A stretch of DNA of 64,000 nucleotides, from positions 128,001-192,000 of the forward strand of contig JBEKVV010000002.1 of assembly GCA_049513715.1 (NCBI GenBank), in the 5' to 3' direction. This DNA is from Candidatus Bathyarchaeia archaeon (lineage in GTDB: Archaea > Thermoproteota > Bathyarchaeia > 40CM-2-53-6). Shown piece after piece: positions 15,291 through 22,395 of the stretch. Every line of letters begins with the position of its first letter. Position 1 is the stretch's first letter. Made by a program: the position numbers and the translations under genes. Below the pieces are notes generated by a model that worked only from the letters and a program-made list of their open reading frames with translations, did no database searches and was not told where the DNA came from.

Positions 15291-15553
15291 TTGCTCCAAG
15301 CCACTCAACGAGTGGCCAAGCAACCTGAAAACTAGCCAGCACCACAAACTCGAATGTAGTACCCTAGTAATACATTCGAAATAATATCCCTACCATACCC
15401 CCCAACATACCCCTATGCTGGAGTGTATACACCCAACGTTTGGGTGTATACACCCTGACAAGGAAGGTGTGTGATGTCACCTCACTCTCGGGCGAGACTT
15501 GGGTGCTGGCTGTTACTGTCACACTCGGTTAGACCCCTCTAATACTACATTCG
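15291..15553. repeat. Palindrome- and inverted-repeat-dense intergenic element
   Basis: GCCACTC/GAGTGGC stem; TCGAATGTA/TACATTCGA stem (15350-15379); GTGTATACACCCAA-cgt-TTGGGTGTATACAC (15423-15453); long-range complementary pairs. Confidence 0.7.
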
Positions 15554-16375: not shown

Positions 16376-16585
16376 TTGACCCCAAAGGAACGCGAGTTAC
16401 TTCAGGGAATGGCTAATTGCTACAAAGCGTGCCACGCGACTTTCGAAGAAACAGTGGGCATGGTTGGGTCTGCCCGAGGCCTCACCTCTGCTGAAGTCAA
16501 GGAAATGTTGGAACGATTGAAACATGAAGGTGGGGAGGAGTACATGGCGCTTAGGCGAAAGCTTCCTGGCGATTTCCCACTGTGA
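16376..16585 (+). CDS. Small hypothetical protein with CxxxCH-like motif, first gene of a three-gene operon
   Basis: 69 aa, NCYKACH; stop adjacent to the next gene. Confidence 0.65.
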   Translation: MTPKERELLQGMANCYKACHATFEETVGMVGSARGLTSAEVKEMLERLKHEGGEEYMALRRKLPGDFPL

Positions 16586-16602
16586 GATTGGAGGCCTCAC
16601 GA

Positions 16603-17499
16603 TTGACAAAATGCTCAGTATGCGGAGAAGCATTCGCTAGGGGAGACTACAGCAGCCTTGCAAGCCACTTGTATGAATTTTCTGAAAGAAGCGATGTGGA
16701 GCACGTGATGTGGCTGAACAAGAACATCACGAAGAAAAAAACGAAGGCGGCAGAGCTTTCACAACTGATGGGTGAATACTTCGACACGCATGACGACCTG
16801 AAAGGTTGGATTAAGAAAAGATTCATTGAGAGATTCTACGGACCCAACCCACACCCCTTCGTGCTCGCCCTCCAACACCCCTCAAGGGCCACGCTGTTAG
16901 GCTACGTCGTGGAGCACCAACATTTCCTGAGGCAGTGGACTCGTTCGTGCGCTTACATTATTGCGAAAACCGATAAGGTCGACGTTACGCTTTACGAACT
17001 TGACAACATAAACACCGAATTCGGCGGCAGTGGTGTCGGAAAACCGTCGCATTATGAGCTGCTGTTGCGAATGGGCGAAAGCCTGGGCCTGCCAAGGGAA
17101 AAAGCCCTTGCAACACCACCGCTACCTGATACGGCTTCGGCAATCAATACCTGGAACAGTATCGCCGAGAAGGACCACTGGTTGGAGACGATGGTGGCGA
17201 TGCATGGGCTCGAACTGATAGCCGACCGGAACCTAACGAACGAAGGGGCCTCGGTTCACTACTTTGACCCTGAGGTCCTGAAGGGCAAGGACGTAACGGA
17301 AGGAACCAAGAACTTCCTCAGGGAAGGCTACGAGGCCGACGTCAAGCACTCTGAAGAAGCCCTGAAACTTGTTGACAAGTACTCCGCAGAACTCGGTATA
17401 ACGGAGAACGTTCAGGCAACGTTCCTAAAATCCATCCATGCCTTCGACTATTACTTAATGGCCCGTTTGGAGAGAGGGAAGCAGTTTGAAGGTTCCTGA
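16603..17499 (+). CDS. C2H2-type Zn finger fused to a heme-oxygenase-like diiron (PqqC/CADD/TenA-fold) domain
   Basis: CSVC...H...H; HPF, DNINTE...SHYELL, HGLE, EADVKH metal-ligand pattern; start TTG 16603 (or GTG 16582). Confidence 0.8.
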   Translation: MTKCSVCGEAFARGDYSSLASHLYEFSERSDVEHVMWLNKNITKKKTKAAELSQLMGEYFDTHDDLKGWIKKRFIERFYGPNPHPFVLALQHPSRATLLGYVVEHQHFLRQWTRSCAYIIAKTDKVDVTLYELDNINTEFGGSGVGKPSHYELLLRMGESLGLPREKALATPPLPDTASAINTWNSIAEKDHWLETMVAMHGLELIADRNLTNEGASVHYFDPEVLKGKDVTEGTKNFLREGYEADVKHSEEALKLVDKYSAELGITENVQATFLKSIHAFDYYLMARLERGKQFEGS

Positions 17500-17782
17500 A
17501 GGCTGCGCCATTTGCGGGGCCACGTGGGGCAACCACTGGGCCGAGGTGGAAGACCAACGAATGTTCTTCTGCTGCAAGATTTGTGAAACGGAATTTCGCA
17601 ACATGATTGACCAAGTCAAGGCCAGGACCGGCTGGAGCACAATAGATGAAATCAAAATTCAAGGAGACCAAAGGAGCAGGCTGTGCACAGCGTTCTCCGG
17701 CAATAACACATACAAATTCACCATTAGCTTCAACTCGCAGGGGGGAATTCGAACCTTCGAAATAGGCCCTTCCCAAGCTTAG
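17486..17782 (+). CDS. TA0938-family Zn-binding protein
   Basis: GCAICGATWG..W..V....FFCC.IC motif; overlaps the upstream gene. Confidence 0.8.
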   Translation: MKVPEGCAICGATWGNHWAEVEDQRMFFCCKICETEFRNMIDQVKARTGWSTIDEIKIQGDQRSRLCTAFSGNNTYKFTISFNSQGGIRTFEIGPSQA

Positions 17783-17794
17783 GCCAACTGCAAG

Positions 17795-18254
17795 GATGAC
17801 CAGACAAGGTTTTTGGATTGCTCAAGAAGTAGCTGACACGAAGTACACCGCCGACCTAAGGCCACTTTTCAAGCTAGGCAAAGCGATTACAGAGAAGCAG
17901 CCTAAGACGCTCGTATCTGATGGTGCGATGAATTTCCATGTGGCATACAAAAGCGAGTTCCGCACAGCTAGGCTTGAGAACCGAACAGAACACATACGAC
18001 ACCTCAGACTCTAAGGCGATTACAATAACAACAAGATGGAGCGCATGAACGGGGAAATCCGAGACAGAGAACGAGTAATGCGAACCTTAGAAAGGAAAGA
18101 CACACCGATACTCACTGGTATCCAGATATTCCACAACTACATAAGACCGCACATGGCACTGAAAGGGAAACCCCCTGCGGAAGTTGCAGGAATCAAGGTT
18201 GAGGGGGAAAACAAGTGGCTCACGATAATTCAAGACGCAAGTCGAAACGGGTAG
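17795..18254 (+). pseudogene. 5'-truncated IS6-family transposase with an in-frame nonsense codon
   Basis: Close to the C-terminal half of 20091-21215 (TRFWIAQEVADTKYTAD...NNNKMERMNGEIRDR); TAA at 18012-18014 interrupts the frame; N-terminal part absent. Confidence 0.9.
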
Positions 18255-18375
18255 TTCTCTCTCACTTCTTGTTTGTCGAACTATATACGTGCACTTGGTA
18301 ACTTATGAGGGGGTTGATCCTCGTTGCGTAAAGTCTAATTGCCATTATACAAATGTGCGTAATGTGCGTTGATAG

Positions 18376-18900
18376 TTGCCAGATGCTAAGCCTGTACCGT
18401 TGAAGACGCTTGACAAAGACGCAGAAACAGGCCTAATCGTCGAGAGCATTAGCGGCGAAAAGGTCGTTACATTCCGAACCAAAACCTTCCTGCAATTGAT
18501 GGATAGGCTCATGGAATTACTAGGGGGCACGGTTGGTGCCACTGTCCTTCATCAGATGGGTATCGACGTAGGTCGAAGCTTGTTCGGCTATTTGAAAGAC
18601 GAAGTGAAATCTGAAAGCGATCTGGCCAGTGCGATGGACATTGTGATGGCGGAAAGAGGTTGGGGAAGATGTAGGGCAATAGAGAAGCTTGAGATGAGAG
18701 GTTTAGCATACAGCATAAGAACCGAAGGCAATCCGATTTCTGGTACGCATGGGAAAAATGAGCCCATGTGCCACTTCATCCGAGGAAACTACACAGGCTT
18801 TCTTGAAGCATACCTACACAAGAAGGCAAAAACTAGCGAACAGGTCGCTTGCACAGCACTCGGCGCACCATATTGCACCTTTGAAATAACATTCGCTTAG
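18376..18900 (+). CDS. V4R domain protein
   Basis: GWG, PMCHFIRG, EQVAC...G..YCTF. Confidence 0.88.
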   Translation: MPDAKPVPLKTLDKDAETGLIVESISGEKVVTFRTKTFLQLMDRLMELLGGTVGATVLHQMGIDVGRSLFGYLKDEVKSESDLASAMDIVMAERGWGRCRAIEKLEMRGLAYSIRTEGNPISGTHGKNEPMCHFIRGNYTGFLEAYLHKKAKTSEQVACTALGAPYCTFEITFA

Positions 18901-19027
18901 TGGAAGATCGACAAGCTCACAATACTGGATGGCCCATCAACCGTGAAGGTAACGTTACCTTACGTAAGGTAACGTCACTTCTGCGTTTGGTGAAAGCATC
19001 TCGTAGCTGTGTAACAATTCGTTTGGT

Positions 19028-19513
19028 TCAGTAGCGTCTTTCGTAGCGAGAAAGTTTAATCTTCGCCTTGGCTGGCCTGAGAATTGTGCGTTGTATGCGT
19101 TCCCTGAAAGTTATGTCAAATTTCAAGAAGACTGAATCCCGACCCAGTACAGTATACGGTATAGCCTCTGGATTGACTGGGACGAAGACAGGCATGTCTG
19201 CGAAAGTTGCTATATTATTTCCCGCTTTCAAGACCTCGATGGTGAGGTTGAAAATCACTGTGTCGAACCCGCCGCCTGCACCTATAGATGGTGTTGCCTT
19301 TTTGGGGTCTATTTGGAGACCTAAGATTTCTGCTAGGTCTGTTGGGACGAATGTATTGGTCGCTCCTGAATCAACAAGACCTAAAGTTGTTAGACTTGCT
19401 GTTGCTGTCCTAAGTCTGACATGGAGAAGCGGAACCCTAAACGCTCGCTTAAGCAGGGGATGATAATATGAAAGATAACGATTTACTACAGCACCTTTGA
19501 AAAGAGAGGACAA
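19028..19513 (-). CDS. Retropepsin-like aspartyl protease (passenger)
   Basis: GLVDSGAT catalytic motif and VLGRD. Confidence 0.88.
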   Translation of the reverse strand: MSSLFKGAVVNRYLSYYHPLLKRAFRVPLLHVRLRTATASLTTLGLVDSGATNTFVPTDLAEILGLQIDPKKATPSIGAGGGFDTVIFNLTIEVLKAGNNIATFADMPVFVPVNPEAIPYTVLGRDSVFLKFDITFRERIQRTILRPAKAKIKLSRYERRY

Positions 19514-19519
19514 GTTAGG

Positions 19520-19714
19520 TTACAGCAGCATTACGGTGTCGGACGGAATTTTCATAACGAATGGCTCCTTGTCTGGATACCTTCGTTTGGCTTCCGCGAA
19601 CACTTCTTTTCCGCTGTCACCAGATGCAACAAGTTCCTTGCCAACGAGCGCAATCCATTTGCCTACATACTCGCGTAGATCGCCCATTGACATTAGGTAG
19701 TTCAAATAGTCCAT
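19520..19714 (-). CDS. DUF5678-like small protein (passenger)
   Basis: YVGKWIAL...VASG...EA...P..EPFV.KIP. Confidence 0.8.
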   Translation of the reverse strand: MDYLNYLMSMGDLREYVGKWIALVGKELVASGDSGKEVFAEAKRRYPDKEPFVMKIPSDTVMLL

Positions 19715-19784
19715 TTTTCTCTACTCCTGAAAAATAACAACTGTACATTTAACCCTGTTGTTCGCCTATCCAATGTTACAGTCG

Positions 19785-19982
19785 TTAATCCTCTTTCCTT
19801 CTAACAGTTTTAGACGGGTCGGCGCTAATCCAGAGAACAATGGCTTCCTCGACAGCTTCCGAGATGTTGCCTTTTTTCATGCCTTTACGCTTGAAAACCT
19901 CTTCTTTGAACCGCTTTTCTCTGTCTGCTGGCAAATACACATCTATTCGAGATTTGCCTTTTGGGACGCTTGGAGACACCAT
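19785..19982 (-). CDS. Ribbon-helix-helix/CopG-like DNA-binding protein
   Basis: RIDVYLP...FK...KGNISEAVEEAI.LW. Confidence 0.8.
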   Translation of the reverse strand: MVSPSVPKGKSRIDVYLPADREKRFKEEVFKRKGMKKGNISEAVEEAIVLWISADPSKTVRRKED

Positions 19983-20009
19983 CTAGCCCTCAGAAAGCAT
20001 ATAGACACA

Positions 20010-20083
20010 TTACCACTTATAACCTTTACCCCCTTACCACCAGCTTTATCTAGGAAAGAGGCGTATAGGTGTTTAAGTGGTAA
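20010..20083. promoter_or_regulatory. Divergent promoter/operator between the RHH gene and the transposase
   Basis: TTACCAC at 20010 and 20034, TTACCCC at 20026; perfect 10-bp IR TTACCACTTA (20010-19)/TAAGTGGTAA (20074-83) overlapping TATA-like boxes. Confidence 0.6.
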
Positions 20084-20090
20084 ACCACCA

Positions 20091-21215
20091 ATGCAAGTCC
20101 TCAGAACTCGTGAAGAAAGGGGCCGAATAATTGCCGAAAAGTCTAACCAAATTGTTCGATTGGATGAACGGTTCTACCGTGTAACTTCTCAGTCTGGCAA
20201 TGGAATGTATGATGTGACCAAGCGCAAGGTCGGTGGATGGTTATGTACTTGCCCCGACTTCGAGTTTCGTAACGTTCAATGTAAGCACGTTTGGGCTGTC
20301 CAATTCAGCCTAGCCGTAAGGAAAGAGGTCGAGGCTAGAGTCATTGAGCCAATAACAGACATACACGCTTGCCTATTCTGCAAATCCGAGAACATAATTC
20401 GCTGGGGCTTACGCCACAACAAGTACGGCGACATTCAGAAATTCTCCTGCAAATCATGTGGCAAATTCTTCACGATCAATCTAGGCTTTGAGAAGATGAA
20501 GCACAGCCCTCAAGCGATAACGACAGCCATGCAACTATACTTCTCAGGCGAAAGTCTACGGAATACGGCTAGATCGCTACGCTTGATTGGAGCGCAAGTG
20601 AGCCATCAGACAATCTACAGGTGGATAGCCAAGTACACGACATTGATGGAGAAATATCTGGACAAGATTACGCCTCAAGTCTCGGACACTTGGGCCACAG
20701 ACGAATTATTTCTGAAGATTAAGGGGAACATGAAGTATCTCTACGCTATGATGGATGAGCAAACACGGTTTTGGATAGCTCAAGAGGTTGCGGATACGAA
20801 ATACACGGCTGACGTTCGACCACTATTCCAACTCGCCAAGCAAATCGCAGGCAAGCAACCAAAGACGCTCGTCTCTGACGGTGCGGCCAATTTCCATGAA
20901 GCATACCTGAAAGAGTTCCGCACAGCCAAACTTGAGAACAGAACCGAACACATACGACACATCAGACTAGCAGGAGATTACAACAATAACAAGATGGAGC
21001 GCATGAACGGGGAAATCAGAGACCGAGAAAAAGTGATGCGGGGCTTAGAAATCAAAGACAGCCCAATACTCAAGGGCGTACAAATCTACCATAACTTTGT
21101 GAAGCCGCACATGGCACTAGACAACAGAACACCCGCTCAAGCAGCGGGAATAGAAGTCAAGGGCAAAGACAAATGGCTAACAATCATACAGAACGCTAGT
21201 CAAGAGAAAACCTAA
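20091..21215 (+). CDS. IS6-family DDE transposase with N-terminal SWIM and Zn-ribbon domains
   Basis: CTCPD...CKH (SWIM); CLFC...CKSCG; HTH TIYRW; WATDELF...YLY..MD; SDG; NNKMER. Confidence 0.92.
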   Translation: MQVLRTREERGRIIAEKSNQIVRLDERFYRVTSQSGNGMYDVTKRKVGGWLCTCPDFEFRNVQCKHVWAVQFSLAVRKEVEARVIEPITDIHACLFCKSENIIRWGLRHNKYGDIQKFSCKSCGKFFTINLGFEKMKHSPQAITTAMQLYFSGESLRNTARSLRLIGAQVSHQTIYRWIAKYTTLMEKYLDKITPQVSDTWATDELFLKIKGNMKYLYAMMDEQTRFWIAQEVADTKYTADVRPLFQLAKQIAGKQPKTLVSDGAANFHEAYLKEFRTAKLENRTEHIRHIRLAGDYNNNKMERMNGEIRDREKVMRGLEIKDSPILKGVQIYHNFVKPHMALDNRTPAQAAGIEVKGKDKWLTIIQNASQEKT

Positions 21216-21246
21216 TCCCAGTTCTCGATAAACTTAGGAAGTCTTG

Positions 21247-21480
21247 TCAAGTCTTGTTCGGCGACTTGAGGAGAGCTATCCAGTCAAGCGCCCTCTTCTT
21301 CACCTCACCAACCGAGGCTTTTTCACCGATTTCGATTAACGCAGGTATAGCAGTTACACCAAATGCGGCGACAGCGTTAACTGCTGATACTCTAGCTTCA
21401 TAATCTGCCCATTTCGCATACGTAGGCATAGATTGTAGAGCTACCCCCTTCAGTCTATCTATCTGCTCCTTCTCTGACAA
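21247..21480 (-). CDS. Small HEAT-repeat-like hypothetical protein (passenger)
   Basis: ARVSAVNAVAAFG..AIPALIE...VKKRAL pattern. Confidence 0.6.
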   Translation of the reverse strand: MSEKEQIDRLKGVALQSMPTYAKWADYEARVSAVNAVAAFGVTAIPALIEIGEKASVGEVKKRALDWIALLKSPNKT

Positions 21481-21679
21481 TGCTGAGCACTTCCTCTATC
21501 CCTTTTCTATATGGATGATTCATGTACCATGCCAGAAAAGCCTTTGCGTCATTTCCATCCATTTTGAGTATGATCTCGAAGAAGCCAAGCTCGTTCCGTA
21601 GATGCCTCGTCACACGCCATCTTAACCACCGATTTACAAACGCTCTACGCCACCGACCAAACGGTTTGTTACAGCCCAA
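21455..21679 (-). CDS. Small hypothetical protein (passenger; start uncertain)
   Basis: Fills the space between the right TIR and the HEAT-like gene, which it overlaps. Confidence 0.4.
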   Translation of the reverse strand: MGCNKPFGRWRRAFVNRWLRWRVTRHLRNELGFFEIILKMDGNDAKAFLAWYMNHPYRKGIEEVLSIVREGADR

Positions 21680-21728
21680 AAAAATCGGTCTACCAAACTA
21701 AGACGTTACGTTACCTTACGTAACAAAA

Positions 21729-21757
21729 TTTATATCTGTCTGTTACTAATGGTAACA
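21729..21757 (+). promoter_or_regulatory. hsp20 promoter: TATA box and palindromic operator
   Basis: TTTATAT 21729-21735; TGTTAC-taatg-GTAACA 21741-21757; SD GAGGTGA 21768-21774. Confidence 0.7.
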
Positions 21758-21777: not shown

Positions 21778-22395
21778 ATGAAAATGTCATCAGACGATGA
21801 GTTCTTCCCCGATTGGTTTAGGTCGCGCCGTGGGCGCAGGTCGCCGTTCGGTTGGATGGACCGTTGGTCAAGTGGTTTCGACGAAGTGTTCGAGCGCATG
21901 TTCCAAGACATGGCTAAAGGCATGCCCAAAGACTTCATGAACGAAAAGAAACTTCCAGACGGGTCCACCGTTCGCCAATTCGGCCCCTTCGTGTACGGTT
22001 ACTCTATGACCATGGGCCCAGACGGGAAACCCATAATCCAAGAATTCGGCAACGTCAAACCATCCAAACGGCCAGGCGCATTCGGCATCGAGCAACCCGC
22101 CCTAGAGCCGGCAGAGGCCAGAGAGCCATTGGTCGACGTGATCAATGAGGCCGAACAAGTGCGCGTTCTCACTGAGCTGCCAGGCGTAGAGAAATCCGAC
22201 ATCAAGACCAGCATAGCCGAAGACACGCTAACCATCAAAGTGGACTCAGCGGCCCACAAGTACTACAAGGAAGTCCATCTCCCATCAAGCGTTGACCCCG
22301 ACAGCTCCAAAGCGTCCTACAACAACGGCGTCCTAGAAATCATACTCCGAAAGACGCACCCAAAGCCTCGGGGCAGAGAAATCAAAATCGACTAG
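21778..22395 (+). CDS. hsp20: Archaeal small heat shock protein Hsp20
   Basis: GPFVYGYSMT.GPDGKP...EFGNV, REPLVDV, ELPGV.K.DI, A.YNNGVLEI. Confidence 0.95.
   Translation: MKMSSDDEFFPDWFRSRRGRRSPFGWMDRWSSGFDEVFERMFQDMAKGMPKDFMNEKKLPDGSTVRQFGPFVYGYSMTMGPDGKPIIQEFGNVKPSKRPGAFGIEQPALEPAEAREPLVDVINEAEQVRVLTELPGVEKSDIKTSIAEDTLTIKVDSAAHKYYKEVHLPSSVDPDSSKASYNNGVLEIILRKTHPKPRGREIKID

Follow-up and report, generated by a model that had tools for sequence, protein, structure and literature searches.

TATA-anchored stacks of cargo-carrying, IS6-like transposons upstream of hsp20 in Bathyarchaeia

Insertion at a position fixed by the promoter has been described at sigma-A promoters in bacteria and at Pol III genes in yeast. 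DDE elements of the ISLre2/TnGBS and ISKra4 groups keep a constant distance upstream of host promoters when they insert (PMC3942029), and the yeast element Ty3 integrates harmlessly and with base precision at a position set by a TBP-containing factor, in competition with the polymerase (PMC8632968). Here we describe a 64,000-nt stretch (the window) of contig JBEKVV010000002.1 from a Candidatus Bathyarchaeia archaeon (assembly GCA_049513715.1, positions 128,001 to 192,000; source genome G000, with contigs C1, C2, C3, C4 and C9), in which the remnant of a transposon (A), the 8-mer TTACGTAA, an intact 2748-bp element (B, 18968-21715), a second TTACGTAA and, 54 bp on, the start of the host hsp20 gene follow one another. 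This layout, given in a preliminary description, is borne out by coordinates and by comparison of the element ends. We interpret the locus as stacked DDE transposons with cargo, of a family whose 8-bp target duplication ends about 5 bp upstream of an archaeal TATA box, probably because the transposase docks on a promoter bound by TBP and TFB. Subscription journals and ISfinder aside, the literature yielded no description of the family, nor of insertion sequence (IS) elements or other promoter-fixed insertions anchored at archaeal TATA promoters; the available main text of a 2026 survey of archaeal IS elements (PMC13343696) contains no use of “TATA”, “promoter”, “SWIM” or “target site”.

When end pairs and duplications were called de novo, most elements proved to have a TATA box immediately beyond them. 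As a test set we took 155 more loci, from GTDB genomes and metagenomes, that scored highest among at least 571 and at least 603 relatives. Of 93 called elements, 11 were already represented in the genus set and 5 had a repeated 8-mer; without these, 77 remained, and host flank was present in 73 of these independent elements, which come from Bathyarchaeia, Nitrososphaeria and Asgard archaea. The duplication measures 8 bp at 89 of the 155 loci, 6 bp at nine and 9 bp at one, and lengths of 5, 7 or 10 bp do not occur. A TATA-like motif starts 3–7 bp past the duplication in 55 of the 73 elements, compared with 2–11 of 73 in seven control windows, 3 of 67 in an eighth and a mean of 11.4 (maximum 23) in 1000 shuffles; in the 127 host flanks, the start of the fixed hexamer YTTAWA falls at offsets 3–7 in 33 instances and at offsets 8–49 in 10. 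In the flank logo, an A-rich stretch resembling a BRE, the element recognised by transcription factor B, covers the last two duplicated bases and is followed by TTTATA at +5, an arrangement that we read as BRE-TATA from the position of BRE relative to TATA (PMC5512572). The target site is defined by its distance from the BRE/TATA box. The element side facing TATA is the left in 38 cases, the right in 22 and both in five, and ISKra4-group members with near-perfect ends likewise insert in both orientations (PMC3942029). Among the open reading frames (ORFs) downstream of targets, 26 of the 38 scanned (from 48 candidates) match Pfam, in families that include Hsp20, HtpX, thermosome, TBP, TFB, SufB, proteasome, ribosomal proteins, Alba and a Toprim protein.

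The same geometry and stacking would be expected if the transposase read the BRE/TATA DNA, or its bendability, directly and without a host protein. We regard this as unlikely. The BRE-TATA consensus lies immediately beside the cut, the transposase carries two extra zinc modules, and the cut falls within the BRE-like stretch, where it could clash with bound TFB; however, TATA sequences differ among target sites, and the bias towards promoters with a particular box within the genus, described below, would be hard to obtain from TATA sequence alone. Random insertion followed by selective retention of harmless copies upstream of promoters is very improbable. Some copies do lie away from TATA boxes, and only fixed insertions are observed, but under such a process any position upstream of the BRE would be tolerated rather than a peak 5 bp wide, and different elements occupy the same base in 16 genomes.

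These 16 genomes are among the 18, of 23 in the genus, in which hsp20 could be located. All of them have an element end at one and the same base upstream of the gene, the elements differ, and the eight different 8-mers have only the final GTAA in common. Occupied sites match element ends from outside hsp20 loci at 18–24 of 24 positions, compared with 9 of 24 for empty alleles (n = 2) and 8–12 of 24 for outgroups (n = 3). This occupancy supports the earlier proposal that an archaeal family with a site preference accumulates arrays of cargo elements in one fixed place, and the empty allele that had been sought exists in G002 and G003 as host sequence that is unbroken through GTTTGTTACC, the 8-mer and the TATA box. 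Since the transposases at the site belong to two separate clades, it has been struck more than once. Three genomes of other families retain a GTTAC-N5-GTAAC box at hsp20 without an element end, and the box is thus older than the elements. Arrays of 2–5 elements with one common 8-mer are found at hsp20 in G000, G004, G013, G016, G017, G019 and G021, and other genes have been targeted too, htpX in three species and a thermosome gene in four, every one with a different 8-mer.

The palindromic TTACGTAA had also been proposed as the target, and this part of the preliminary description was abandoned. A 100% identical copy of B at C2:73001-75748 is flanked by ATCCCGAG, so TTACGTAA is neither part of the ends nor required; it is a true duplication, the identical copy ruling out that it belongs to the terminal repeats, and the variety of 8-mers at hsp20 likewise speaks against a fixed target. 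The genome contains 21 copies of TTACGTAA, two of them at element ends. In the window there are exactly two, with 0.41 expected, and the pair alone is weak evidence because at least two copies appear in 6 of 100 shuffles.

Duplication leaves the promoter and target intact; the same spot is therefore reusable, and stacks form. Another element end adjoins 22 of the 77 elements, and TATA is on the free side in 15 of the 18 that are stacked on one side. The stacks are polar: six of seven multi-element hsp20 arrays have an intact proximal transposase, and in none of the seven is the farthest transposase seen intact; distal decay includes a host deletion in G008 that stops at an element end. Back-to-back ends 8 bp apart number 4 in G000 (0.08 expected per spacing) and 37 in the 23 genus genomes (13 for a reversed control), and the spacing histogram of the 155 loci peaks with 56 at 8 bp against 1–15 at other spacings. 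The reversed pattern in G000 alone, 5 vs 4, does not discriminate, and the spacing histograms do. An excess at exactly 8 bp in all three sets would also arise if elements inserted 8 bp from a resident end, or from an end-like host sequence such as the GTTACC in the hsp20 box, as IS911 and IS30 do beside resident copies, with promoters incidental. GTTACC adjoins the site in the empty hsp20 allele and all 16 proximal hsp20 elements have a matching tip, but we hold this explanation to be decidedly improbable: about 40 unstacked elements (55 minus 15) lie at TATA with host DNA on both sides, different tips are mixed within stacks, a complete three-element thermosome array has a distal flank without end-like sequence, and the stacks are polar. 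Tandem arrays beside resident copies are also formed by IS26 translocatable units, by a targeted route that is conservative and makes no new duplication (PMC7986276); here, the same 8-mer flanks each element and neighbours differ. The G008 deletion, inverted 8-mers at some junctions in G004 and G019, and inverted copies in G017 are compatible with replicative cointegrate (copy-in) transposition; the latter two fit either copy-in transposition within the array or recombination. A separate array site, between an oxidoreductase and an aldehyde oxidoreductase-like gene, is common to three species (L039, L044, L129) and has the related 8-mers CATCTGAG, CAACTGAG and CAATTGAG.

The exact GTTAC-N5-GTAAC box occurs seven times in G000, compared with 0–5 times for other spacings, at hsp20 and an AAA ATPase gene twice each and at a thermosome gene, htpX and an uncharacterised gene once each. 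We take the AAA ATPase to be CDC48. The box of HSR1 at hsp20 in Archaeoglobus, CTAAC-N5-GTTAG, differs in sequence and is likewise a 5-N5-5 palindrome, and Phr of Pyrococcus keeps polymerase off the TBP/TFB promoter complex (PMC9133787). Because the gene set resembles the HSR1 and Phr regulons, we read the box as a likely host heat-shock operator and hence as a candidate motif of the heat-shock regulon in this lineage. It lies 16–20 bp past the duplication in 8 of 13 distinct genus target promoters, and in 7 of 12 among transposase-selected loci against 1 of 550 background TATA-like sites, in species that are not independent; outside the genus set it occurs in 4 of the 127 host flanks. We conclude that TATA sets the geometry everywhere and that the box marks favoured promoters in the genus. 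A bound host repressor, the heat-shock one here and others elsewhere, could instead tether the transposase, the TATA offset being a by-product of operator spacing. In favour of such a tether, the box sits at offset 17–19 at many genus sites, and several Nitrososphaeria sufB targets appear by eye to have another common motif past TATA; we nevertheless judge it improbable, as the box is rare in the independent flanks, where the TATA offset holds throughout, and 5 of the 13 genus promoters are without it.

Three further observations concern these promoters. The gene at C1:164522-165336, whose promoter is overlapped by the box in five genomes and whose C-terminus is winged-helix-like, is a candidate autoregulated heat-shock repressor; its product (C1:164578) gave no family match besides one weak, unrelated one. 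In Nitrososphaeria and metagenomes, targeted promoters of sufB and small regulators (L157, L162, L163, L165, L209, L279) have a common ATAAC-type motif just past TATA, a possible second repressor box. At L056:5185-5255 (contig C4 of G012), an unrelated gene is preceded by an array and by a promoter of the hsp20 type that contains both boxes; the promoter may have moved together with the array.

At hsp20 the cut falls within the upstream box, and the top strand of the element tip, GTTACC, equals the six displaced host bases exactly, so that the box is rebuilt base for base by every proximal element. This would leave hsp20 repression intact and the site harmless. In a tree of 103 transposases, 86 come from elements with other tips, mostly the IS6-like GGTTCTG, and the GGTAAC tip is nested among them with 2 changes vs 16 in shuffles; as far as a quick, midpoint-rooted tree can tell, it appears to be derived within the family, possibly from a single origin. 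At thermosome promoters of the same genus the elements have other tips. Selection for an intact operator explains the pattern simply, and evolved mimicry of the operator is a bolder, unproven reading. A tip that matches a host box is a candidate for host regulation having shaped a transposon end.

In the mechanism that we favour, the transposase, whose insertions keep a set spacing upstream of TATA, would dock on the TBP/TFB-bound promoter, its family-specific N-terminal SWIM domain likely being the targeting module. Duplication regenerates the promoter side, allowing the same spot to be struck again, and each newcomer would land beside the promoter and shove older elements outward, where decay would follow. 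Promoters with the box would be repressed heat-shock promoters on which TBP and TFB sit without polymerase, and such promoters are a plausible stable and long-lived landing pad because Phr bars polymerase and Ty3 integration excludes it (PMC9133787, PMC8632968). At hsp20, the GTTACC tip of one subfamily restores the left half of the box and would thereby keep repression. A more ambitious version, which we put forward as tentative and rather doubtful, makes the family an archaeal counterpart of Ty3 with TBP/TFB as its landing pad, in which the tip of one Bathyarchaeia subfamily copies half an operator, the subfamily inserts into and rebuilds the hsp20 operator, and repressor binding to ends or junctions would tie transposition to stress, at a genus-wide polar locus of gene accretion.

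Several points weigh against the docking mechanism and the reading built on it. TATA targeting is not absolute, since 18 of the 73 elements have no TATA-like flank, nor does the second copy of B or a 1.9-kb element of the same family at C2:124089. The broader TATA pattern was defined after the flanks had been seen, although the fixed hexamer peaks identically with fewer matches; surviving insertions are a sample filtered by selection, and genomes of one genus are not independent of each other. The box is read as a heat-shock operator from its gene context, and in three orthologous thermosome promoters its distance from the duplication (18–19) is steadier than that of TATA (2–5), which fits a repressor anchor. 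Finally, the first and fourth elements of the G017 array are 100% identical and inverted, so that array order is not strictly one of age.

The transposase of B has a SWIM motif (C52, C54, C64, H66), a zinc ribbon (C94, C97, C120, C123) and a DDE triad (D204, D263, E303), of which D204 and D263 are invariant and E303 is present in at least 90% of 141 sequences. Close relatives were found in Bathyarchaeia records, in keeping with a bathyarchaeal host, and the best among named relatives are IS6 transposases with 25–30% identity. A structure model improved from a pLDDT of 59 with 13 sequences to 83 with 141, and gave an integrase-type fold match (Z 13.6, root-mean-square deviation 4.2, 162 aligned); fold searches matched just residues 136-354 and thus lacked the SWIM part, for which an atlas comparison returned SWIM clusters below 0.9 only. 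A complex prediction of TBP, the TFB core and transposase residues 1-135 scored 0.00 (“no answer”), which is no evidence either way.

The preliminary description spoke of IS6-like elements; plain membership in IS6 would be too simple an assignment. The reference descriptions of IS6/IS26 include the long, zinc-finger clostridial clades h and i (PMC7986276, PMC6807381). With them the family shares a related catalytic core (PF13610, the IS6-type DDE domain also named DDE_Tnp_IS240, 52 bits vs a cut-off of 27), the 8-bp duplication, also found at both copies of B, and termini that open with GG and carry G at position 7 (GGTAACG in A and B, GGTTCTG in most relatives); most family tips, GG..CTGT, resemble the IS6 motif cTGTt. 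It departs from IS6 in the whole-protein model (NF033587, 110.6 bits, top of 11 families yet below the cut-off of 125), in the N-terminal SWIM domain of a 374-aa transposase, and in size and organisation: the 93 called elements are cargo-carrying and span 1983–6554 bp (2.0–6.6 kb; median 3.25 kb), and B has five further ORFs, in contrast to about 0.8 kb (~0.7–0.9 kb, transposase only; long clades to ~1.76 kb) for IS6. In place of short 14–20 bp ends with cTGTt, B has two-part ends, of 24-bp and inner 18-bp repeats, and the tip GGTAACGT, which lacks cTGT. Promoter-fixed insertion and stacking are not described for IS6/IS26 in the available portions of PMC7986276 and PMC6807381. ISLre2/TnGBS differ in having Mutator-type transposases and inserting 15–17 bp upstream of the −35 element of sigma-A promoters (PMC3942029), compared with an IS6-type core, archaeal BRE/TATA and stacks here, and Mutator-type models score far under IS6 (IS256, 24 bits, cut-off 150; ISH6, 20 bits, cut-off 240). 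IS1 is equally remote (NF033558, 50.7 bits, cut-off 100), with only the zinc ribbon being IS1/IS1595-like (26.2, cut-off 28). Ty3 is a retrotransposon whose integration site is close to the transcription start, on TFIIIB's polymerase side, and whose protein contact has been solved (PMC8632968); the family here consists of DNA transposons on the upstream side, and its contact with TBP/TFB is inferred. The family thus works like ISLre2/TnGBS, ISKra4 and Ty3 without belonging to any of them, and is apparently an undescribed promoter-anchored, cargo-carrying branch of IS6-like elements. It offers a small single-transposase system for a direct test of TBP/TFB targeting and a natural safe-harbour vehicle for 2–6 kb of cargo in archaea without tools, and would account for variable clusters of genes that lie upstream of conserved ones in Bathyarchaeia, Nitrososphaeria and Asgard archaea.

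Contigs are about twice as deep over B as over its flanks in 4 of 4 sequencing runs, and contig placement at stricter likeness finds just the two known pairs of B flanks in 4 of 4, so an assembly artefact was rejected; the runs are possibly the source of this DNA, and therefore exclude misassembly without being independent evidence. A mixed loose end in one run hinted at a third insertion site; no position in the genome could be assigned to it, and it was absent at stricter likeness. Contigs of seven runs showed no joint of a circle junction or of an empty allele in the source population, which is uninformative because contigs lose rare forms. The 1.9-kb element without a TATA flank, 2 kb upstream of the window (C2:124089-125964, 1876 bp), has no transposase, ends that agree at 20 of 22 positions and the duplication CGCGCGGC; its cargo includes an ORF that looks HEPN-like by motif. 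Three further end-to-end junctions in G000 are at C3:630-6114 (CACTGAAC, CTTTCGGC), C4:198559-201650 (AACTTAAC) and C9:1858-1919 (CTCGGTTG), the last on the upstream side of a TFB gene, about 1 kb away.

Features of the stack in the window are collected in Table 1. As had been reported, the GG-starting 24-bp terminal repeats of B are identical at 20 of 24 positions and the right end of A matches the left end of B at 17 (16 for the right end of B). The 24-bp palindrome at 18952-18975 is exact, and results from two shared 8-nt tips flanking a palindromic duplication. The two transposases are indeed related yet distinct (76% identity over 145 aa), that of A being a 5'-truncated remnant; a search for the left end of A did not find it. 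Transposases in decay in many genomes mostly retain, like A, the C-terminal 50–150 residues. Among the passenger labels, V4R, DUF5678 and aspartyl protease are upheld by Pfam, and “HEAT-like” lost its basis, with no Pfam or NCBIfam match at E ≤ 0.01. New to the description are the inner repeats of B (16 of 18 identical) and a ribbon-helix-helix (RHH)-like gene divergent from the transposase; homologues occupy the same divergent position at 8 of the 155 loci, and the gene is likely the element's own regulator.

Table 1. Coordinates of the A/B stack and the hsp20 promoter in the window
Feature	Position	Strand	Match
Element A transposase, C-terminal remnant with one internal stop; A left end missing	17805..18254	+	
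Element A passenger, V4R-domain protein	18376..18900	+	PF02830, E 3e-9
Right terminal repeat of A, GGTAAC tip	18936..18959	-	
8-bp target duplication, distal copy, spacer A/B	18960..18967	.	
Left terminal repeat of B, 24 bp	18968..18991	+	
Inner 18-bp repeat, B left end (two-part end)	19010..19027	+	
B passenger, retropepsin-type aspartyl protease	19028..19513	-	PF13650, E 8e-7
B passenger, DUF5678 protein	19520..19714	-	PF18929, E 1e-15
Small RHH-like gene, divergent from transposase	19785..19982	-	atlas 0.94 to RHH_6 cluster
Intact B transposase, 374 aa, SWIM + Zn ribbon + helix-turn-helix + DDE	20091..21215	+	
B passenger ORF, 77 aa, no family match (formerly “HEAT-like”)	21247..21480	-	
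B passenger ORF, 74 aa, no family match	21455..21679	-	
Inner 18-bp repeat, B right end	21656..21673	-	
Right terminal repeat of B	21692..21715	-	
Upstream GTTAC-N5-GTAAC box, made of B tip and duplication; likely heat-shock operator	21710..21724	.	
8-bp target duplication, promoter-proximal copy	21716..21723	.	
hsp20 BRE-like stretch and TATA box (TTTATA 5 bp past duplication), insertion-site anchor	21722..21736	+	
Downstream host GTTAC-N5-GTAAC box, 18 bp past duplication	21742..21756	.	
Host hsp20 gene	21778..22395	+	NF041800 above cut-off

Beyond the stack, the segment from a TPR gene to A (window 16376-17782) includes a 69-aa ORF, a zf-C2H2/TenA-like gene and a Ta0938 gene that are unmatched at the scanned hsp20 loci of relatives; these three genes may be cargo of older, erased elements. 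A short repeated segment at window 15422-15485, with very high contig depth, many loose ends and a 14-bp perfect inverted repeat (15423-15453), is possibly a small dispersed repeat. Elsewhere in G000, two pairs of long, near-perfect inverted repeats, 3.5–4.9 kb apart (C1:65120-68882 and C3:343869-348793), are unrelated to the transposon family.

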